Positions 2,516-29,660 of a stretch of DNA of 32,000 nt are shown piece by piece. The position numbers and the translations under genes were made by a program. The first letter of the stretch is position 1. Each line of letters starts with the position of its first letter. The stretch is taken from NCBI GenBank assembly GCA_004556155.1, contig SFIM01000013.1, positions 18,603-50,602 of the forward strand, read 5' to 3'. The notes beneath the pieces were generated by a model. That model was not told the DNA's origin. It did not search any database and was given only the letters and a program-made list of their open reading frames with translations. This DNA is from Clostridiales bacterium (GTDB taxonomy: Bacteria > Bacillota > Clostridia > Christensenellales > Aristaeellaceae).

Positions 2516-2624
2516 AGGGCTGGACGCACTTTTTTGCCACAATCGGCGCGCGCGGCGACTTGACGGCGGAGCGGAAATAATAGTAAGATAAAGCGTTGAA
2601 CCAACCCAAAGGAGGATTTTCCCC

Positions 2625-3221
2625 TTGACCGAAGCCGAACTGCGCCCTATCGTGGCGCGCAACATCGCCGCCTGCCGCAAGCAAGCGGGCATGACGCAGG
2701 CCGAGCTGGCGGAAAAGCTGAACTATTCCGATAAAACGATTTCCAAGTGGGAGCGGGCGGAAGGCTTGCCCGATCTGGTGGTCAGCCAGAATATCGCGGA
2801 GCTGTTCGGCGTGCCGCTGGACGCGCTGCTGCGCGATGATACGCCCAAGCCCGTGGACGATGCGCGAAGCGCGCGCCAGCTCAACGCCCGCCGCAGGATG
2901 ATCCTGCTGATGTCGGTGAGCTTGTGCTGGCTGGTCGCCACCATCGCTTACTTTGCCCTCAAGCTCGCCGTGCCCACGCTGCCGCGCGTGTGGCTGGCCT
3001 TCATCTATGCCATGCCCGCCAGCTTTATCGTGTGCACGGTGTTCACCTGCATCTGGTGGAAAAAGCTCTGGCGGCTGCTGTCGATCAGCGGCATTATCTG
3101 GACGCTGGCCGTGGCTGTGCATATCAGCATCCGCCTGCCGGCCATCTACCTGATCTATGTGGTGGCTGCCGTGGTGCAGGCGCTGTTTTTGATGTTCTTC
3201 CATTTTTTGCGCATCAAGTGA
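2625..3221 (+). CDS. XRE-family HTH regulator with four C-terminal transmembrane helices
   Basis: TTG start after AAAGGAGGA (2609-2617). The HTH_3 signature is AGMTQAELAEKLNYSDKTISKWERAEGLPD. The C-terminal half is hydrophobic (LLMSVSLCWLVATIAYF..., IYLIYVVAAVVQALFLMFF). Confidence 0.75.
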   Translation: MTEAELRPIVARNIAACRKQAGMTQAELAEKLNYSDKTISKWERAEGLPDLVVSQNIAELFGVPLDALLRDDTPKPVDDARSARQLNARRRMILLMSVSLCWLVATIAYFALKLAVPTLPRVWLAFIYAMPASFIVCTVFTCIWWKKLWRLLSISGIIWTLAVAVHISIRLPAIYLIYVVAAVVQALFLMFFHFLRIK

Positions 3222-3231
3222 GGAGCCAGCC

Positions 3232-3909
3232 ATGACCAAAGCCGTGTATGAGATGCTGCTGGGCTATATGCAATCCTGCGTGGCCGACCGCGCGCACGAT
3301 GAAAACCATGTGCTGCGCGTGCTGTCCAACGCCCTGCAAATCGCCCGCGAGGAGCCGCAGGCTGACCTGGATATCCTGATGGCGGCCTGCCTGCTGCACG
3401 ATGTGGCCCGGCGCGAGGAGATGGAAACGCCCGGCGTGCGCCATGCGGAGGCTGGAGCTGGAAAGGCGCGCGCGTTCCTGCAGCGCCAGGGCTTTTCAGC
3501 CGAATTTTGCAGCCGTGTGGCGGATTGCATCGCCGCGCACAGCTTTGGCAGCGGCCCTGCGCCTGCGCGCATCGAGGAAAAAATCCTCTTTGACGCGGAC
3601 AAGCTGGACGCCGCCGGGGCGCTGGGTACGGCGCGGATGCTGCTGTATCACGGCGCGGCGGGCGATCCGATTTATGAGGTGCGCGCGGACGGGCAGGTAA
3701 GCGACGGCGTTGGGGATGCGCAGCGGAATTATTTTTATGAGTATCACGGCATGATTGCCCAAATGGCCGGCAGCATGCTCACCCCGGCAGGCCGCCGCAT
3801 GGCGCAGGCGCGCGCCCAGACCGCGCGGCAGCTGTATCAGGCCATCTATGATGAGGCGCAGGGCTGCCATCTGGCTTTGCGGCAGGCGCTTGACGGCGCG
3901 TTTTCCTGA
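3232..3909 (+). CDS. HD-domain metal-dependent phosphohydrolase
   Basis: GAGGAG RBS. The H...HD motif is present (ENHVLRVL...ACLLHDVARRE) together with a later DADKLD. The gene starts 10 nt after the previous stop, so it is probably operonic. Confidence 0.8.
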   Translation: MTKAVYEMLLGYMQSCVADRAHDENHVLRVLSNALQIAREEPQADLDILMAACLLHDVARREEMETPGVRHAEAGAGKARAFLQRQGFSAEFCSRVADCIAAHSFGSGPAPARIEEKILFDADKLDAAGALGTARMLLYHGAAGDPIYEVRADGQVSDGVGDAQRNYFYEYHGMIAQMAGSMLTPAGRRMAQARAQTARQLYQAIYDEAQGCHLALRQALDGAFS

Positions 3910-3983: not shown

Positions 3984-4224
3984 GGTTAAGGTTCGGGTCT
4001 GTGGTTGAAAACCGATGCCAGTCGCAGGCAAAGCGGTCCACGTAAGCCTGGAGAATTTCCGGGTGAGCATGGTGCGGTTTAGACGTAAGTCCGGCCGGAT
4101 GAAAATCCGAGAGAGCGGCGTGGGGGCCAAGATGCTATGAGCAATGCTCCTGCCGGCGAGTGTGGGGTCAAAGACCAGGTCAGCCTTCCTTAAACCGGAA
4201 AAATTATCAGGGGGTTTACCATCC
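3984..4224 (+). promoter_or_regulatory. long structured 5' leader (unclassified) of the zinc-ribbon gene
   Basis: About 240 nt separate the predicted TSS from the ATG at 4225, with no credible ORF. Local hairpins include CGGAU-GAAA-AUCCG (4096-4109), CCUGGA-GAAUU-UCCGGG (4047-4063), GGUC-AAA-GACC (4166-4176) and GAGC-AAU-GCUC (4140-4150). The ends GGUUAAGG (3984-3991) and CCUUAAACC (4187-4195) can pair. Confidence 0.35.
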
Positions 4225-6274: not shown

Positions 6275-7057
6275 TCAGCTTTCCGACACATACTTGCGCA
6301 TGTGCTGCAGGGCGTTCTTTTCCAGCCGCGATACCTGCGCCTGGGAGATGCCGATCTCGCCGGCGACCTCCATCTGCGTGCGCCCCTCGAAAAAGCGCAT
6401 GCGCAGGATACTCTGCTCGCGCTCGGTCAGGCGGCGCAGCGCCTCGCTGACGGCCAGATTTTCCAGCCACTGGCTGTCCGTATGGCGCGGATCCTTGACC
6501 TGATCGATGATGTAGATGGCGTCGCCGCCGTCGTTATAGATCGGCTCAAACAGGGATACGGGATCCTGGATGGCCTCCAGCGCCAGCACCACGTCCTCCT
6601 CGGGCACGTCCAGCGCCTTGGCGATTTCGCCCACGCTGGGCTCACGGTTCATCTCGGCCACCAGGCGGTCGCGCGCTTGCAGGGCTTTATAGGCCGTATC
6701 GCGCAGGCTGCGGCTGACGCGGATGGGGTTGTTATCCCGCAGGTAGCGGCGGATTTCGCCGATGATCATCGGCACGGCATAGGTGGAAAAGCGCACGTTC
6801 TGCGTCACGTCAAAGTTATCAAGCGCTTTGATCAGCCCGATGCAGCCCACCTGAAACAGGTCGTCCGCGTTTTCCCCGCGATTGCTGAAGCGCTGCACCA
6901 CGCTGAGCACCAGCCTGAGATTGCCGCGGATAAACTCCTCCCGCGCCGCGCGGTCGCCGCCATGTACCAGCGGAAACAGCTCGCGCATGCGCTCATTGGT
7001 AAGCACGGGCAGGGTGGAGGTTTCCACCCCGCAGATCTCTACCTTGCTGCTTGCCAT
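6275..7057 (-). CDS. sigG: sporulation sigma factor SigG (forespore, SigF/G clade)
   Basis: Sigma-70 regions 2-4 are present (RGNLRLVLSVVQRF, DLFQVGCIGLIKALDNFD, STYAVPMIIGEIRRYLRDNNPIRVSRS, ISQAQVSRLEK). The gene lies downstream of sigE, as in the canonical spoIIGA-sigE-sigG cluster. Confidence 0.93.
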   Translation of the reverse strand: MASSKVEICGVETSTLPVLTNERMRELFPLVHGGDRAAREEFIRGNLRLVLSVVQRFSNRGENADDLFQVGCIGLIKALDNFDVTQNVRFSTYAVPMIIGEIRRYLRDNNPIRVSRSLRDTAYKALQARDRLVAEMNREPSVGEIAKALDVPEEDVVLALEAIQDPVSLFEPIYNDGGDAIYIIDQVKDPRHTDSQWLENLAVSEALRRLTEREQSILRMRFFEGRTQMEVAGEIGISQAQVSRLEKNALQHMRKYVSES

Positions 7058-7082
7058 ACCGATTTTTACCTCCGATGAAATC

Positions 7083-7111
7083 AGTATGGCTTTTCGCGCC
7101 CGCCTTTATGC
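7083..7111 (-). promoter_or_regulatory. forespore-type (sigma-F/sigma-G) promoter of sigG
   Basis: The minus strand reads GCATA (7107-7111), 18-nt spacer, CATACTG (7082-7088). This is close to the GHATR-N18-CATxHTA consensus and lies ~25 nt upstream of the sigG ATG. Confidence 0.5.
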
Positions 7112-7130: not shown

Positions 7131-7799
7131 GGGGGAAGACGGGGACGAGGAGACGAAGGGAACGGGGAAAACGGGGGAAACGTTACTTTCTTCAGTGAAG
7201 AAAGTAACAAAGAACCGGTATTGTAGACGAAAAAGCTGTTGGAATAAAACTGGAAGGCGGCACCGCCGCCCCCGTGGCAGGGAAAAACTTGAATCGCTCG
7301 GTTCGGAGTAAACTCCAACCGGACGATTCTTCATTTTTCCCCTTCGGGCGTGCTGCGCACGCCCTGCGCTGATCTGCGATCAGCGTGCCGCGGGAGCGAT
7401 AGTTGGGTGCAGGAATCCTGTATGGCGGTTGGCAATAGATTTAATGGAACGGGCAACGGAAGGCTTCTCCTCAAGGAGAAGCCTTTTGGTGAGTGCACTC
7501 ACCAACTATCGTTACCCGCCACGTCTGATTTCTGCCCCAACCACGCCCCCGTGGCAGCGGACAGCGCAGCTGGACGCGAGGGCGTGCGTAGCACGACCAT
7601 GGGGGAAAGCAGGAAACGAACGGAGGAAAGCTTGCTTTCATCCGGGCGGTTCAGGCTTTCTCCTGCCACGGGGTGGCCAGGGCCACTCCCAGTTTTATTC
7701 AATCGACTTTCATGTCACAAACAGGTTCTTTGTTTCTTTCTTGACTCAAGAAAGAAACGTACCCCCTTCGTCCCCCTCGTCCCCCTCGTTCCTGCCCCC
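7131..7799. repeat. element A: 669-bp nested-palindromic modular intergenic element (unclassified family)
   Basis: Left arm from 7131 and right arm up to 7799 are inverted copies. Each carries an ACG-purine tract, a 27-bp palindrome (7182-7208, 7732-7758), AAAGAACC, a GAATAAAACTGG block, and a CCCCGTGGCA...GCCACGGGG stem enclosing hairpins. The centre is a 20-bp perfect palindrome at 7486-7505. The element is homologous to 17626-17868 and 21056-21898. Confidence 0.85.
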
Positions 7800-8504
7800 T
7801 TAGCTGCTCATCCGGGTCAGCTCCACGTTCAGGCGCGAAAGGATGCGCTTTTCCAGCCGGGAGATGTAGCTTTGCGATATCCCCAGCGCGTCGGCAACCT
7901 CCTTTTGCGTCATCTCCCGCGCGCCGCCCAGACCAAAGCGAAGCTGCATGATCTGCTGCTCGCGCAGGGGCAAGCGCGCCAGCGCCGCGCGCAATAGCTG
8001 CTTTTCCACCTTGTCGTCCATGCGGCGGTAAACCAGATCGCTCTCCGTGCCCAGGATATCGCTTAGCAGCAGCTCGTTGCCATCCCAATCCTTGCGCAGC
8101 GGCTCATCCAGGGAGATTTCATAGCGAATCCGCGCCGTGTGGCGCAGATGCATCAGCATTTCGTTTTCGATGCAGCGCGAGGCGTAGGTGGCCAGCTTGT
8201 TCTTCTTTTCGGGGTCAAAGGTGTTGACTGCCTTGATCAGCCCGATCGTGCCGATGGAGATGAGATCCTCCAGCCCCACGCCCGAGCTTTCAAACTTGCG
8301 GGCAATGAACACCACCAGCCGCAGATTGCGCTCAATCAGGATGGAGCGCACCGTGCCGTCATCCGTGGGCAGCTTTTGCAAAAGCTCCGCTTCTTCCTCG
8401 CGCGTAAGCGGCTGGGGAAGCGGGTCCGCCCCGCCGATGTAATCCAGCGAACCCGCGCAGAGCCGCGCCCAGATTGCGTATAGCTGCCGTCGCATATCAA
8501 TCAT
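7800..8504 (-). CDS. sigE: sporulation sigma factor SigE (pro-sigma-E)
   Basis: The pro-sequence is followed by the [12 protein letters not shown] signature of SigE/SigK. It also has [13 protein letters not shown] and [13 protein letters not shown]. It lies immediately downstream of spoIIGA. Confidence 0.93.
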
Positions 8505-9461: not shown

Positions 9462-11003
9462 TTATTTGGCGTATTCCGTGCTGCGGGTTTCGCGGATCAC
9501 GTTTACGCGGATCTGGCCGGGATACTCCAGCTCACGCTCGATGCGCTTGGCAATTTCCTTGGCCATCACCTTGGTGCCCTCGTCGGTTACATCCTCGGGC
9601 TTGACCATGATGCGGATCTCGCGGCCGGACTGGATGGCGAAGGACTTTTCAACGCCGGCAAAGTCGTTGGCGATGGCCTCCAGCTTCTCCAGACGCTTGA
9701 TGTAGTTCTCCAGCGATTCGCGGCGCGCGCCGGGACGGGCGGCGCTGATGGCGTCGGCGGCCTGCACCAGCACGGCCTCCACCGTCTGCGGCTCCACATC
9801 GTTGTGGTGCGCCAGGATGCAGTGGATCACGTCGTTGCTCTCGTGATACTTGCGGGCCAGTTCGCCGCCCAGCTGCACATGCGTGCCTTCCTGCTCATGG
9901 TCGACAGCCTTGCCGATATCATGCAGCAGACCCGCGCGCTTGGCCAGATGAACGTCCGCGCCCAGCTCGGCGGCCATCAGGCCGGCCAGATGGCTGACCT
10001 CGATGGAGTGCTTGAGCACGTTCTGGCCATAGGAGGTGCGGTAGCGCATGCGGCCCAGCAGCTTGACCAGCTCGGGATGCAGGCCGTGCTGACCCGTCTC
10101 GAAGATGGCCTGTTCGCCAGCCTCGCGGATCTGGTTATCCACTTCCTTCTTGGCCTTTTCCACCATTTCCTCGATGCGGGCGGGGTGGATGCGGCCATCC
10201 TGAATCAGCTTTTCGATGGCGATGCGCGCAATCTCGCGGCGCACGGGATCGAAGGCGGATACGATGACGGCTTCGGGGGTATCGTCGATGATCAGATCGA
10301 CGCCCGTGGCGGTTTCCAGGGCGCGGATGTTGCGGCCCTCGCGGCCGATGATGCGGCCCTTCATATCGTCGTTTGGCAGGTTAATGACGGACACCGTGGT
10401 TTCGGCCACATGGTCGGCGGCGCACTTCTGGATGGCCAGGGCGATGATGTTGCGGGCCTTCTTTTCGCCCTCGTCCTTGGCCTTGGCCTCGATATCGCGC
10501 ACCATGGCGGCGGCGTCGTGGTAGGCTTCCTTCTGCACGCGGCTGATGATCATCTGCTCGGCCTCATCCTGGGTCATGCCGGCGATGCGTTCCAGCTCCT
10601 TCACCTGCTTGTCGCGCAGCTGCTCGGCCTCGTCGTAGAGGGCCTGCGTCTGCTCGGACTTTTGGTTGATGGCCTCCTCGCGCTTTTCGAGGTTATCCAT
10701 CTTTTTATCCAGCATTTCCTCACGCTGGTTCACGCGGCGCTCGCTGCGCTGCATTTCGGCGCGGCGGGTGCGGATCTCGTCGTCCAGCTTGGTTTTGAGG
10801 CGAAGGACCTCCTCCTTGGCCTCGATTTCCATTTCTTTTTTCGTTTCCGCCGCCTTGCGGGTAGCGTCGTCCAACAGTTTTTTCGCGTATTCCTCGGTTC
10901 GGCCGATGCGCTTTTCGGCCATGTTCTTGCGATAAAAATAGCCGCCGCCCGCGCCGACCAGCGCGAAGACGACCATGAGTGCGATTGCGAGAATTAAGTC
11001 CAC
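9462..11003 (-). CDS. rny: ribonuclease Y
   Basis: N-terminal TM helix, Glu/Lys-rich coiled coil, KH domain ([15 protein letters not shown]) and HD domain ([17 protein letters not shown]...LLHDIGKA). GTG start at 11003, 7 nt after GGAGG; the upstream in-frame ATG at 11057 has no RBS. Confidence 0.93.
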
Positions 11004-11454: not shown

Positions 11455-11528
11455 AGGGGCATGGTGTAATGGTAACACGTGGGTCTCCAAAACCTTTGTT
11501 GTGAGTTCGAGTCTTACTGCCCCTGCCA
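11455..11528 (+). tRNA. trnW: tRNA-Trp (anticodon CCA), CCA end encoded
   Basis: Hand-folded cloverleaf. Acceptor stem AGGGGCA/TGCCCCT, D stem GTGT/ACAC, anticodon loop CTCCAAA, T arm GTGAG-TTCGAGT-CTTAC, discriminator G followed by CCA. Confidence 0.92.
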
Positions 11529-17625: not shown

Positions 17626-17868
17626 GGCGGGGATGGGAGGACGGCAACTCATTCGTCTCGCGTTTGGGAGAAGGCTTTTATGGTTGTGCGGTTTTCATGC
17701 TGGTTGCCGTTCTATTCAACAATCGCAAATAGATACGAACAACCAATGCATCCAAGCATGCCCCCGTGGCACGCCGATGCAATCGACTTTCACGTCACAC
17801 ATAGGTTCTTTGTTACTTTCTTCACTGAAGAAAGTAACGTATCCCTCGTCCCCCGTCTCCTATCCTTC
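17626..17868. repeat. element C: 243-bp internally deleted member of the same repeat family
   Basis: The right part (17775-17868) matches the terminal module of A and B: the GTGTGACGTGAAAGTCGATTG block, AAAGAACC, the 27-bp palindrome 17811-17837, and the C-rich/ACG-purine tract. GCCCCCGTGGCAC (17759-17771) matches the core stem. The left end keeps the G-rich tract GGGGATGGGAGGACGG. Confidence 0.7.
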
Positions 17869-19985: not shown

Positions 19986-20062
19986 GGGAAATCTCTCCTT
20001 TAGTCAAAGCTGAGGTTCGCTATCCTTTATTGTACAGAAAACAGCGCGGCGGGAAAGGACGT

Positions 20063-21040
20063 TTATCGCCTTTCGTCGCAACCTGAATTAACCCGCCAGG
20101 CGCTGGGAGACATGCCCGTGGCCGACTCGAAGATGCGGTAAAAATAGCTGCTGTTGCTGTAGCCCACCGCCGCGCAGATTTCCATCACGCTCAGGTCGGT
20201 TTCGCGCAGCATGCGCTTGGCCTTTTCAATGCGCCGCTCCTGCAGCAGCGCGGTGCAGTTTTTGCCGGTAGCCTCCTTGAGCACCTTGCACAGATAGGCG
20301 GAGGACACATGCTTGCGCCGGGCGAAATCGCGCAGCACAAAATCAGCATAGTTCTGGCGGATTTCCTGCAGCAGCTCGATGACCACCAGGTTTTCCTGAT
20401 GCGTGGCGGCGGGCATACGCATGCATTCCGGCCGGCTGAGCAGGTGCAGAAACAGCAGCCCCATCTCGGTGCGGCGAATTTGCAGGCCGGCGGCCTTGGG
20501 CGCGATGAGCGAATGCACAATGCTTTGCAGCAGCCACTGGATCTCGCTGATCTCGGCCACGCGGAAGTGCAGGTAGGCCATGTCCTGCTCATAATTGCGC
20601 AGCGCGTCCAGCAGGAATCTGCCCAGCACGTTATGGGTGCCGATCATATCGGGCACAAAATCCAGAAACTCCTGCTGGATCAGGAAGTTGACCGCGATGT
20701 CGTTTTCCCCGCACCGGGCGATGCTGTGCGCGCTGTGGCGGTTGATCAGCAGCAGCTCGCCCGCCTGCAGGCGCACCGTGCTGCCGTCGGGCATGCCGTG
20801 CAGCGTTTCGCCCTGCAGCATATACATCATTTCCACATAGTCGTGCCAGTGCATGGGAAAATCGGCAAAGCGCGTATGCGGCCGTAGCGAGATCATCTGC
20901 CGCGAGGGCACAAAGCGCTCGCCCTCCACGATGAAGGCGCTGCGGTCGGTATAGCGTCCCTGCGCCAGGGGTTCGCCGCGCAGCAGGCTTTCTTCCTCCT
21001 GCGTATGGGGCGCGAAAAAGCGAATCAGGCTGTCGTCCAT
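20063..21040 (-). CDS. AraC-family regulator with N-terminal cupin (RhaR/RhaS-like)
   Basis: Cupin segment (FADFPMHWHDYVEMMYMLQGE) plus a C-terminal double HTH (ICAAVGYSNSSYFYRIFESATGMSPSAWR). It is adjacent to rhaA. Confidence 0.9.
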   Translation of the reverse strand: MDDSLIRFFAPHTQEEESLLRGEPLAQGRYTDRSAFIVEGERFVPSRQMISLRPHTRFADFPMHWHDYVEMMYMLQGETLHGMPDGSTVRLQAGELLLINRHSAHSIARCGENDIAVNFLIQQEFLDFVPDMIGTHNVLGRFLLDALRNYEQDMAYLHFRVAEISEIQWLLQSIVHSLIAPKAAGLQIRRTEMGLLFLHLLSRPECMRMPAATHQENLVVIELLQEIRQNYADFVLRDFARRKHVSSAYLCKVLKEATGKNCTALLQERRIEKAKRMLRETDLSVMEICAAVGYSNSSYFYRIFESATGMSPSAWRVNSGCDERR

Positions 21041-21055
21041 GCGTGGGCTCCTTTC

Positions 21056-21898
21056 GGGGAGGGGATGGGGAACGAGTGGGGAGGACGAAAGGGAACGTTC
21101 CTTTCTTCAGTGAAGAAAGGAACAAAGAACCGATGTGTGACGTGAAAGCCGATTGAATAAAACTGAAAGGCAGGACTGCTACCCCGCCCCCATGGTCGTG
21201 CTGCGCACGACCTGCGCTGATCTGCGATCAGCGTGCCACGGGGGCGTGGTTGGGTGCGGGAAGTCTTGCGCAGCGATTGACGTCTGTTGGAAAAACGCGC
21301 TCACCAAAAGGCTTCTCCTTGAGGAGAGGCTCCGCCGCAGGCGGTGGTGAGGTGTAGGCTGCGAAGCAGCCGTTATCAAAACAATATAAGGACTACGCCG
21401 CTGCGGCGGCTACGACCCTCACAATTCGGCATAATCGTTTTGCAACGCTGACGCTTGCAAAACTCGTTGCCTCATTGGCGCTGCATCTGGCACAGAGGCG
21501 GATTACGCGCCTCATCAGTCAGGACAAGCCTGACAGCTTCCCCTCCAAGGGGAAGCCTTTTGGTGGCCGCGCTCTCTATATGTAAAAAACTGCGTTTCCC
21601 TTCATCCGCTTCGCTATGCTCAGCACCAGTCGCCCAACCGCCGTCTGCGGGGCAGCAGACAGCGCAGCTGGATGCCAGGGCTGGCGAAGCCAGACCAAGG
21701 GGGAAAGCGAAGGGATGACTGGGCGGAGCTTGCTCCAGACCAGGCAGCGCAAGCTTTTCCCTGCCCCGCAGAAACCTGCGTCCCCTTCCAGTTTTATTTC
21801 AGCAGCTTTCACGTCACACGCAGCTTTCTTTGGTACTTTCTTGGGCTCCAAGAAAGTACCGTCCTCTTCGTCCTTTTCGTCTCCTCGTCTCCCCGTCC
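21056..21898. repeat. element B: 843-bp full-length member of the repeat family
   Basis: The termini are inverted: a G-rich tract from 21056 and a C-rich tract to 21898. The palindromes are at 21097-21123 and 21832-21860. The 44-nt core block 21199-21242 differs at only 2 positions from 7351-7394. Each arm carries a CACCAAAAGGCTTC-hairpin module (21301-21331 and 21537-21567). The central ~200 bp is a string of tri-loop hairpins. Confidence 0.85.
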
Positions 21899-22366
21899 TT
21901 ACCCCGGATACTCCGTCCGCGCGTGCTCGGTCAGCTCGCGCAGATAGCGGGCGATGTAGAACTTGGCCATGTCCAGGTTCTGCTCCTGATAGTTGCCGCA
22001 TTCCTCGGGGCGCGCGCCGGGGATATCGCCCGAAAAGCCCAGGATGAAACGGCACATGTCGATCACCAGCGGCAGCGCTTCCTGCGCGCTGACCTCGCCG
22101 AAAAGAATCAGATAAAAGCCCGTGCGGCAGCCCATGGGGCCAAAATAAACAATCCGATCCCTTTGCGCGCCCGAGCGCAGAAAGGTTGCCCCCAGGTGCT
22201 CGATGGTGTGAATGGCCGGGGTATCCATCACCGGCTCGCGGTTGGGCGCGGTCAGGCGCAGATCAAAGGTGGTTACGCGCCCATCCCCCTGCCCGTCGCG
22301 GCGCGATACGTATACGCCGGGCAGCAGGCGGGTGTGATCAATGGTGAAGCTGGCGATCTTTTCCAT
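21899..22366 (-). CDS. luxS: S-ribosylhomocysteine lyase
   Basis: The HTIEHL metal motif and GCRTGFY are present. GGAGGA RBS inside the end of the upstream gene. Confidence 0.95.
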   Translation of the reverse strand: MEKIASFTIDHTRLLPGVYVSRRDGQGDGRVTTFDLRLTAPNREPVMDTPAIHTIEHLGATFLRSGAQRDRIVYFGPMGCRTGFYLILFGEVSAQEALPLVIDMCRFILGFSGDIPGARPEECGNYQEQNLDMAKFYIARYLRELTEHARTEYPG

Positions 22367-23153: not shown

Positions 23154-23348
23154 GGCGCGGTTCTCCTTTGGTATATTCAAGCAAAATGATCAACTGCATT
23201 ATATCACAGCGCCGGACGTTGTCAAGAAAGCAGGTAAACTCAGGTTGCGGCGCGCGGCAACCCGCGTCCTTGCGGGAAAAGGAAAAGCCTGCTATACTGA
23301 TAATCTGGTATAAAAATGCGAATGATTTTATACATAACGGAGGGCCTT

Positions 23349-24431: not shown

Positions 24432-24639
24432 GCGCCGCCGGATTGTCACATCTGGCGCATAAAAGGACAGGGTCAGGTTAATTCAGGTTGCGGGAAAACG
24501 CAATGTGCGTCCTTTTTCCTGATCATGCCATTCAGTATAATAAATATGATATCGATACCGTGCAGCTTGAACATCGCATAACGCATCATTTATTATCTGC
24601 GTAAAATTCATCCCTGGAAAAACGAAAGGAGGAGCTTTC

Positions 24640-28298: not shown

Positions 28299-28317
28299 AT
28301 CTGCCGACAATTGAATA

Positions 28318-28418
28318 CCTTATCAAGAGTGGCGGAGGGAACGGCCCGATGATGCCCGGCAACCGGCGCAAGGCGTGCGGTGCTAATTCCGGCGGCGCGA
28401 TTGCGCCGGCAGATAAGG
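28318..28418 (+). promoter_or_regulatory. SAM-I (S-box) riboswitch aptamer
   Basis: CCTTATCAAGAGTGGCGGAGGGAACGGCCCGATGATGCCCGGCAACC...GGTGCTAATTCC...AGATAAGG matches the S-box consensus. The P1 helix is CCTTATC/GATAAGG. It lies upstream of metK. Confidence 0.92.
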
Positions 28419-28438
28419 CGTAAAGGAAACACCATCTC

Positions 28439-28474
28439 AAACCGCTTGTCTGCAAGGACCAGCGGTTTTCTTTT
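28439..28474 (+). terminator. riboswitch expression-platform terminator
   Basis: AAACCGCU...AGCGGUUU followed by UCUUUU, between the aptamer and the metK start. Confidence 0.8.
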
Positions 28475-28502
28475 ACGCATGGATACAGAAAGGACAGACA
28501 GA

Positions 28503-29660
28503 ATGAGAAAGCTCTTTACCTCTGAAAGCGTGACCGAAGGACATCCCGACAAGGTGTGCGACCAGATTTCCGACGCCATCCTGGACGAAATGCTGCGCCA
28601 GGATCCCGCCGCCCGCGTGGCCTGCGAGTGCTGCGCCACCACCGGCCTGGTGATGATCATGGGCGAAATCACCGCCAACGGCGAGTGCAACATGGAAAAG
28701 ATCGCCCGCCAGGTGATTCGCGATATCGGCTATAACGACCCCGCGCTGGGCTTCGATGCGGATTCCTGCGCCGTCATCACCGCCGTGCATGGCCAGAGCC
28801 CCGATATCTCCCAGGGCGTTACTGCCACTGCCGATCATGAGCAGGGCGCGGGCGACCAGGGCATGATGTTTGGCTTTGCCTGCAATGAAACCGAGGAAAT
28901 GACCCCCATGGCGCTGGCACTGTCCCAGCGGCTGACCCGCCGCATGGCCCAGGTGCGCAAGGACGGCACCCTGCCCTGGATGCGTCCGGACGGCAAGGCG
29001 CAGGTGACCGTCGCCTATGAGGACGGCGTGCCCGTGGCCGTGGACGCGGTGGTGATCTCCACCCAGCATGACGAAACCGTCAGCCAGCAGGAGATCGCCC
29101 GCGCCATGCGCGAGGAAGTGATCGATCAGGTGATCCCGGCGCGGCTGCTGCACAAGGACACCCGCTATTATATCAACCCCACCGGCCGCTTTGTGCTGGG
29201 CGGGCCTGCGGGCGACAGCGGCCTGACCGGGCGCAAGATCATTGTGGATACCTACGGCGGCTACTGCCCCCACGGCGGCGGCGCCTTCAGCGGCAAGGAT
29301 CCCAGCAAGGTGGATCGCAGCGCGGCCTACGCCGCCCGCCATGCCGCCAAGAACCTGGTGGCCGCCGGCCTGTGCGATCGCTGCCAGATCGCCGTATCCT
29401 ATGCCATCGGCGTGGCGCGCCCCGTCAGCCTGACGGTGGATACCTTCGGCACCGGCAAGCTGCCCGAGGATGTGCTGGCCAGGCTGGTGGACAAGGTGTT
29501 TGATATGCGTCCCGCCGCCATCATCGACCGGCTGGATCTGCGCCGCCCCATCTACCGCGCCACCGCCGCCTACGGGCACTTCGGCCGCACGGACGTGGAT
29601 CTGCCCTGGGAGCGTCTGGATATGGTGGACGCCCTGCGCGCCGAGGCCGCCGCGCTGTAA
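28503..29660 (+). CDS. metK: S-adenosylmethionine synthetase
   Basis: [28 protein letters not shown] is the canonical MetK N-terminus. [10 protein letters not shown] and [16 protein letters not shown] are also present. Confidence 0.96.

Follow-up and report, generated by a model that had tools for sequence, protein, structure and literature searches.

We analysed a 32,000-nucleotide (nt) stretch of high-GC DNA from contig SFIM01000013.1 of a Clostridiales bacterium (the window) and focused on an element at positions 21056-21898, located on the minus strand between luxS and the gene of an AraC-family regulator. The luxS open reading frame (ORF; 21899-22366, PF02664, E 5e-55) ends in a stop codon at 21899-21901 and is preceded by an HpcH-type aldolase gene. 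The AraC ORF spans 20063-21040 and is followed on its 3' side by rhaA, a class II aldolase gene, a metallo-beta-lactamase-fold gene and a rhamnosidase gene. Its start codon (21038-21040) is preceded by an AAAGGAG ribosome-binding site at 21048-21054. The element runs from 21898, the first base past the luxS stop codon, to 21056, 1 nt short of AAAGGAG. A first-pass annotation had proposed that it fills the entire luxS-AraC spacer and that an AraC promoter outside it is impossible by position unless the start codon is misassigned. Both points hold up: the G/C-rich sequence extends to 21898 on one side and to 21056 on the other, and the AraC start is backed by homologues of 324-325 amino acids that align over 100% of the protein.

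Comparison with a related species, represented by contigs L144 and L145 (AraC 81% identical), revealed a junction of the form luxS TGA-GCGCGAAAGGAGAGCCTC-ATG AraC. The spacer is thus 18 nt long in the relative and 858 nt in the window, which identifies the element as DNA inserted at the junction of two operon genes. The LuxS proteins of the two species are equally long, and their C-termini stop at the same residue. The ribosome-binding site and start codon of AraC (21038-21054, minus strand) are native and match GAAAGGAG...ATG of the 18-nt spacer. The sequence comparison places the element exactly between the native luxS stop codon and the native GAAAGGAG. Another spacer of the gene row, from the aldolase to the metallo-beta-lactamase-fold gene, is 311 nt long in the window, where it holds a further family copy (copy C), compared with 24 nt in the relative. 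The remaining spacers of the row are unchanged between relative and window (81 vs 77, 4 vs 6 and 19 vs 15 nt).

All modules of the element are given here for the minus strand. A G-rich, Shine-Dalgarno-like leader of 23 nt (GGACGGGGAGACGAGGAGACGAA, 21876-21898) abuts the luxS stop codon in every allele. Next come the 275-nt proximal arm (21601-21875), which carries a terminal hairpin at 21832-21860 and then CAAAGAA, and an inner segment (21536-21600) with the first copy of an apex hairpin at 21536-21556. The 204-nt centre (21332-21535) strings together short hairpins with triloops and is polymorphic for a 10-nt tandem duplication; like the inner segment, it is found in all alleles. The 261-nt distal arm R1 (21071-21331) contains the second apex hairpin copy (21302-21331) and a terminal hairpin at 21097-21123. 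The element closes with a C-rich, anti-Shine-Dalgarno-like trailer of 15 nt (CCCCATCCCCTCCCC, 21056-21070), again present in all alleles and predicted to pair with the leader.

To follow these modules between strains, we compared the spacer in 15 contigs: 10 metagenome contigs with identical LuxS, 4 contigs from a metagenome scan and the window. The 10 identical-LuxS contigs had spacers of 358, 368, 537, 583, 592, 643, 858 (three contigs) and 957 nt, and nine different lengths between 358 and 957 nt were seen in the full set. The 858-nt allele was the commonest (6 of 15 contigs), followed by alleles of 583-593 nt (4 of 15) and 358 or 368 nt (2 of 15), while the 643-, 537- and 957-nt alleles occurred in one contig each. 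In the allele alignment the 275-nt proximal arm, which 9 of the 15 contigs carry, and the 261-nt distal arm come and go independently, with clean module boundaries. Five of the 15 contigs carry a 36-nt alternative, R2, in place of R1, and R2 holds sequence not found in R1. A 94-nt insert lies within the loop of the proximal terminal hairpin in two contigs, and one contig shows a 185-nt deletion between ACGCAGGTTT and ACGCAGTTTT. The proximal arm is bounded by the imperfect direct repeats GGGGACGAA and GCGGATGAA.

Parts of this mosaic recur elsewhere. Modules of the centre were found within family copies at other loci (L062, L105, L112, L116 and L164), and the centre is therefore not native spacer. 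The 94-nt insert occurs in terminal-hairpin loops at at least four loci, including the copy between sigE and sigG (copy A) of some strains, and it brings co-converted flanks with it: the loop changes from GGAGCC to GAGTC and in L002 about 25 nt more are converted. A shared insert with co-converted flanks is a signature of ectopic gene conversion between copies. Since its insertion, the element has been reworked at the DNA level by deletions at short direct repeats, arm replacement, a 10-nt duplication and transfer of the 94-nt insert. The region had initially been taken for a single 843-bp family member; it is instead a nested composite whose modules vary independently between strains. An assembly artefact was rejected as the alleles recur in independent assemblies, and some allele contigs bear names that, judged by name alone, resemble the output of a long-read assembler.

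Hairpin content and conservation of the stems

The element contains 24.5 perfect hairpins per kb, compared with 5.2 in the remaining window and 3.1 in shuffles. Folding of the whole spacer gave z = -19.5 for the sense and -22.0 for the antisense strand. The element ends are inverted repeats of each other with 72.6% identity over 124 nt, as in the terminal inverted repeats of miniature inverted-repeat transposable elements. The pattern CTTTCTT-N5-7-AAGAAAG-NNN-CAAAGAA occurs five times in the window against 0.00 expected. A module earlier proposed for each arm was located in two copies of a CACCAAAAGGCTTC-hairpin unit, one at 21302-21331 (CACCAAAAGGCTTCTCC-TTGA-GGAGAGGC) and an inverted one at 21536-21565 (GCTTCCCCT-CCA-AGGGGAAGC, then CTTTTGGTG). 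Likewise, the chain of short stems with 3-nt loops described for the centre could be retraced at 21332-21344 (GCA), 21357-21371 (GAA) and 21396-21410, and further triloop stems lie in the arms at 21194-21212 (TGC), 21215-21233 (TGC) and 21681-21693 (GAA). Many stems have C-G closing pairs around GNA-type triloops, a combination that is especially stable in single-stranded DNA.

Conservation of the stems was assessed using nine arms from five loci, with 44 consensus pairs in six local helices. Two-sided changes were seen in 18 of the 44 pairs, and 40 cells had changed on both sides compared with 7 on one side, counts that are inflated because several of the nine arms are closely related. Pairing was retained in 97.8% of cells compared with 85.0% in shuffles (0 of 500 reached the observed value), and slid controls yielded at most 5 pairs with two-sided changes. 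Nearly all changes lead from one Watson-Crick pair to another, A-T/T-A and G-C/C-G flips among them, and G-U intermediates are very rare. Further, the two strands have nearly equal fold energies both for the element (-432.5 and -434.8 kcal/mol) and for copy A (-380.8 and -384.8 kcal/mol). Taken together, the Watson-Crick compensation, the equal folding of both strands and the C-G-closed GNA triloops favour maintenance of the stems as DNA hairpins, or by a copy-correction process, rather than as a strand-specific RNA.

The purine arm of the terminal hairpin and the CAAAGAA next to it form a mirror repeat, AAGAAAG-NNNC-AAAGAA, which is kept in every family copy. In the window it is found at 21832-21871, 21086-21123, 7182-7221, 7719-7758 and 17799-17838, and it is present also in family copies retrieved with an independent pattern. 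Purine mirror repeats are able to form intramolecular purine-motif triplexes, and the mirror repeat beside the terminal hairpin could, judged by its sequence, form such a triplex.

A multi-copy repeat family

Two further copies lie on the minus strand of the window. Copy A (7131-7799) is a near-complete palindrome of 669 bp that separates the sigE stop codon from the promoter region of sigG. Its inverted repeat shows 69.5% identity over 676 nt and its identity with the arms of the element is 71-76%. The sigE-sigG spacer with copy A measures 733-742 nt in 10 strains, the main difference being one G-rich repeat unit of 9-10 nt. A related species has copy A at the same position, with the same arms and a different centre. 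Copy C (17627-17865; 239 bp) has, besides its leader and its C-rich trailer, a single terminal hairpin and part of an arm.

Some details of copy A were noted in passing. Its leader on the minus strand (7763-7799, directly past the sigE stop codon) reads GGGGG-N9-GGGGG-ACGA-GGGGG-ACGAA-GGGGG, and the number of the approximately 9-nt G-rich units differs between strains. The four G5 runs could form a G-quadruplex. The ca. 75 nt that separate copy A from the sigG start codon contain, on the minus strand, GCATA-N18-CATACTG (7082-7111), which is conserved in the related species L062 and resembles the consensus of forespore sigma-F/sigma-G promoters. If so, copy A would follow the sigE stop codon and leave the sigG promoter intact.

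The family extends well beyond the window. In species-representative genomes the terminal pattern gave more than 117 stretches among the matches listed, and various Oscillospiraceae and Clostridiales metagenome-assembled genomes (MAGs) carried several copies each. The 5' module of the family consists of 2-4 short G-rich repeats ending in ACG, an 11-13-bp hairpin CTTTCTT/AAGAAAG and then CAAAGAA. The module begins only a few bases past the stop codon of a gene in the same orientation. In 25 of 28 cases among the matches listed, a long ORF on the same strand ended no more than 150 nt before the module, usually at 13-45 nt from the hairpin; for the ACGCG subfamily, the corresponding count among the matches listed was 19 of 21. 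In gut metagenomes the subfamily-specific pattern matched 28 stretches, corresponding to about ten distinct loci. Many metagenome copies lie at contig ends, as expected of repeats that break assemblies. Low-GC relatives carry non-palindromic elements of about 800 nt that are all co-oriented with genes.

One low-GC Clostridiales MAG (L031, CAKSEL01) has three such elements within 8 kb (364-1150, 2555-3426 and 7429-8000), which begin at stop codons, are intergenic and share 30-nt blocks conserved to 97-100%; folding gave z = -2.8 for the sense and -6.0 for the antisense strand. In the Clostridiales MAG L068 (3232-3524), and also in L088 and L099, the hairpin-motif unit is arranged in tandem with a period of 131 nt. 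The hairpin plus CAAAGAA also heads multi-copy repeats in Bacteroidia, Selenomonadaceae, Ignavibacteria/Chitinophagaceae, Paceibacterota and some viral contigs (loci including L013, L020, L034, L040, L044, L060, L064, L070, L086, L127, L174, L178, L180 and L183), and the remainder of these repeats is unrelated to the family. This sharing across phyla could be due to chance for a low-complexity pattern in 596 Gb or could reflect a shared recognition motif. Viral contigs gave 14 matches to the general hairpin pattern, with true family copies in L175 only, and no match to the subfamily-specific pattern. L175 is a 12-kb contig classed as viral (66% GC) whose copies at 6423-6451 and 10609-10637 have a G-rich leader plus GTGTGACGTGAAAG; the contig could derive from a prophage or be a piece of chromosome that was classified wrongly.

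Database searches gave no described counterpart of the element. Rfam returned nothing near its gathering score in 21000-21950 even at E<=10, and no match in the element regions of the window or in six related loci. No ribozyme model matched a hammerhead-like string, CUGAUGAG, in the centre. In other parts of the window we noted a raiA RNA (3987-4192, 173.7 bits), a tRNA-Trp gene (11455-11528) and a SAM-I riboswitch (28317-28419, 84.4 bits) ahead of an ORF at 28380-29660. A BLAST search of the spacer against plasmids and phages gave no match. A protein-coding gene was also rejected, as eight ORFs inside the element had no Pfam match and the allele indels of 10, 94, 261 and 275 nt were scored as not being multiples of three; the conserved protein that would have overturned the initial non-coding assignment was thus not found. 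Integron attC sites or cassettes were rejected because of the size of the elements (239-957 bp), the absence of RYYYAAC...GTTRRRY cores and the flanking genes, which are syntenic chromosomal operon genes in element-free relatives; attC sites are imperfect palindromes of 57-141 bp that follow a cassette ORF. The literature on repeats in Clostridia or Oscillospiraceae yielded no relevant description, which is not proof of novelty. We read the elements as an apparently undescribed repeat family of uncultured gut Clostridiales, kin in kind to REP/BIME, BOX and Correia repeats.

Transcription of AraC and the rhamnose genes

As the element takes up the entire spacer, expression of AraC has to start within it or depend on read-through, an alternative put forward in the first-pass annotation that still stands. 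Using a scan restricted to strict sigma-70 consensus sites, no promoter-like site was detected in 20900-22000 or in the 358-nt allele. Directly upstream of aldolase-luxS, the minus strand carries a sigma-70 promoter matching the consensus at 12 of 12 positions (TTGACA-16-TATAAT with TG, 23198-23225). Given this promoter and no predicted one in the spacer, AraC is likeliest to be transcribed by read-through from 23225->23198. The 18-nt junction of the relative implies that AraC was ancestrally co-transcribed with luxS, so that read-through would be the ancestral mode. In two further relatives the genes that precede AraC are different, and a clearly recognisable sigma-70 promoter serves AraC itself.

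The element had also been credited with a terminator that stops sense transcription ahead of AraC. This could not be upheld for the hairpin at 21302-21331. In this strain the site lacks the stable G+C-rich hairpin and U tract of an intrinsic terminator: it has four U only and a C.A mismatch in the stem, is not part of the minimum-energy fold and was not flagged by a terminator scan. In other strains the stem is a perfect 8 bp, yet it is followed only by UUUUGG. The better-formed hairpin at 21536-21556 faces antisense, with CTTTTGGTG next on the plus strand, and is terminator-like for antisense transcription. Terminator-like sites number 5 compared with 1.1 expected.

The proposal that the element may rewire the rhamnose operon proved too broad. 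The AraC-rhaA spacer contains a motif of ca. 40 nt ending in (A/G)CGTCCTT (20054-20093) about 20 nt upstream of a -10 hexamer, and this copy is conserved in the AraC-rhaA spacers of three related species. Further copies are found at 23231-23271 and 24474-24515. The three copies precede rhaA, a BNR-repeat gene and ABC transporter genes, with the -10-like hexamers TACAAT, TATACT and TATAAT. The motif is probably the operator of the AraC-family regulator and would define a small rhamnose regulon. As rhaA has its own promoter with an AraC-type operator, the element can touch only the supply of the regulator and not the transcription of the catabolic genes directly.

At the RNA level, a closing stem between leader and trailer is predicted in every allele, with 19-30 of the first 40 nt pairing with the last 70 nt. 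In most alleles, weak pairing is also predicted between GGAG of the ribosome-binding site and CUCC in the trailer. An automated search for C-rich trailers beside downstream start codons in other genomes was too noisy in high-GC DNA.

Origin of the mosaic and its meaning

With moderate confidence, we interpret the luxS-AraC spacer as a mosaic of nested modules that stem from a DNA repeat family which is non-coding, rich in hairpins and present in multiple copies; the family would be selfish or neutral, and the spacer would be read through into AraC. The family would persist as DNA hairpins or cruciforms and may spread by a hairpin-dependent mechanism, either of a single-strand type or recombinational. 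A single-strand mechanism of the Y1/HUH type would explain both the missing target-site duplication and the orientation bias; no enzyme that mobilises the family was identified from the neighbours of the listed loci. A transcript starting upstream of the aldolase gene would run across the element into AraC. In such a transcript, the predicted pairing of the G-rich leader with the C-rich trailer would loop out the insert as a closed rod, so that the AraC ribosome-binding site comes to lie next to the luxS stop codon. Such a rod may be cleaved by RNases specific for double strands. Correia elements suggest RNase III as the likely enzyme, in which case alleles may differ in AraC mRNA level. Any effect would fall on regulator dosage, vary between strains and be incidental rather than designed.

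Several points weigh against this interpretation. Neighbouring genes did not reveal a recurrent protein such as a transposase, with only housekeeping families among 2191 clustered ORFs from 117 loci (among the matches listed). No target-site duplication was seen by eye at the flanks of copy A, the element or copy C, and the ends of elements have variable numbers of short G-rich repeats. With neither a recurrent transposase nor a duplication, mobility of the family is inferred and not shown. No completely empty allele occurred among the contigs of this species that were examined, the sole empty site being that of the other species. Retention of copy A in two species with stable length in 10 strains would also be expected of a functional RNA or selected element, and the same applies to the strong orientation bias of the 5' module. 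The compensatory counts carry the inflation stated above. In addition, the strict promoter scan leaves room for a weak or alternative-sigma promoter inside the spacer.

The strongest alternative holds that the polycistronic transcript contains an RNA element under selection that acts in cis, its rod being a processing or stability determinant that couples or uncouples luxS and AraC. It might act as an RNase III site, a 3' exonuclease barrier or a Rho shield, and its Shine-Dalgarno-like and anti-Shine-Dalgarno-like ends would engage ribosomes at both the stop codon and the AraC ribosome-binding site. This would account for the placement of the 5' module 0-45 nt past the stop codon of a co-oriented gene (19 of 21 and 25 of 28 of the matches listed), for the closing stem in all alleles with its predicted GGAG-CUCC pairing, for the conservation of copy A at sigE-sigG in two species and for the low-GC relatives, which are non-palindromic and all co-oriented with their flanking genes. 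However, the two strands fold equally well, the low-GC relative even folds better on the antisense strand, and the compensatory changes almost all lead from one Watson-Crick pair to another with very few G-U pairs. Strains with identical LuxS carry alleles that lack either arm or both, so the full rod is dispensable, and Rfam gave no match. We therefore regard a selected RNA as unlikely.

Less probable still, with only a small chance of being correct in our view, is a DNA-structural element with a host function, such as cruciform or hairpin sites for chromosome organisation, replication priming or recombination. Such a role has been proposed for REP sequences, which bind gyrase, IHF and DNA polymerase I. 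The DNA-level symmetry of hairpin conservation is in line with such a role, as are the C-G-closed GNA triloops and the conserved purine mirror repeat beside the hairpin with its possible triplex. Against it, the relative lacks the element at both sites compared, the content varies strongly between strains and neither a binding protein nor regular spacing is known. Similarly improbable is the initial view of one 843-bp mobile element inserted once, with insulating terminators and an internal AraC promoter: its mutually inverted ends, the exactly filled spacer, the 858-nt spacer as the commonest allele (6 of 15 contigs) and the excess of terminator-like sites (5 vs 1.1) fit, but the arms are present or absent independently and one has an alternative form, R2 contains sequence absent from R1 so that not all forms are simple deletions, family modules known at other loci account separately for the centre and for the loop insert, the spacer has no promoter-like site and the sense hairpin is mismatched in this strain with four U only.

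Several known repeat systems share features with the family. REP, BIME and REPIN sequences of proteobacteria are intergenic hairpins with compensatory stems, form mosaic clusters and inverted doublets that yield long hairpins, often lie just past stop codons in operons, are co-transcribed and strain-variable and lack target-site duplications. They differ in size (REPs 20-40 nt, REPINs ~100 nt), have a GTAG head and are mobilised by RAYT, a Y1 HUH transposase. The present family forms nested composites of 0.36-0.96 kb in a Firmicute host, with G-rich termini followed by the CTTTCTT/AAGAAAG hairpin; the GTAG head is absent, whereas the inverted arrangement and compensatory stems are present. Correia/NEMIS elements of Neisseria are likewise non-coding inverted repeats near genes that are co-transcribed and vary in presence by strain. 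Their hairpins are cut by RNase III, which alters downstream mRNA stability, and an effect of this sort is also the likeliest consequence for the present family. They are 100-155 bp long with 26-bp terminal repeats, a TA duplication, a promoter and IHF sites, while the present family has no duplication and no predicted promoter, is much larger and has a modular nested build.

Modularity is shared with the pneumococcal BOX elements (boxA-boxB(n)-boxC), and size variation with the enterobacterial ERIC/IRU sequences, imperfect palindromes with size variants caused by insertions at fixed internal sites. Both kinds are highly structured, occur in intergenic regions that are transcribed and vary in module number between strains. 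They are unrelated in sequence to the present family, measure 127-300 bp and lack the stop-codon-abutting G-rich leader and the C-rich trailer. The IS200/IS605-derived PATEs have conserved subterminal hairpins, no target-site duplication and a single-stranded-DNA logic, and strand-specific insertion of their kind would explain the orientation bias relative to genes. In case of the present family, no TnpA/TnpB gene with such ends was found in the 117 loci listed, no tetra- or pentanucleotide target was identified and the two ends of the element are inverted copies of each other. Mycobacterial MIRUs also occupy intercistronic spacers of operons, tight against stop codon and start region, but are tandem direct repeats of 40-100 bp with small overlapping ORFs and no palindromes.

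A bolder version of the mosaic reading, which we consider quite unlikely, is a hairpin-based mobile DNA adapted to operons that inserts between stop codon and ribosome-binding site, nests palindromes in hairpin loops, zips up a rod by its Shine-Dalgarno-like and anti-Shine-Dalgarno-like ends and has a mirror-repeat core. If so, transcription, protection from Rho and RNases and downstream translation would continue across 0.3-1 kb of foreign sequence. The hairpin with its purine mirror repeat would be a recognition or structural core, possibly a triplex, whose motif also heads repeats in other phyla.

The family is unusual in its composites of about 1 kb, its nesting in hairpin loops, its abutment of stop codons and the conservation of its hairpins as DNA. 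Short-read assemblies break at it, and in annotation it could be mistaken for a structured RNA or a gene. The interest of this locus, which we rate as moderate, rests on the size and nesting of the element, its placement in an operon junction and its strong strain variation. Among strains of a common human-gut species with identical LuxS, the structured DNA that precedes a sugar-regulator gene varies by as much as 600 nt, and this offers a case of repeat-driven regulatory variation between strains of an uncultured organism that is open to testing.

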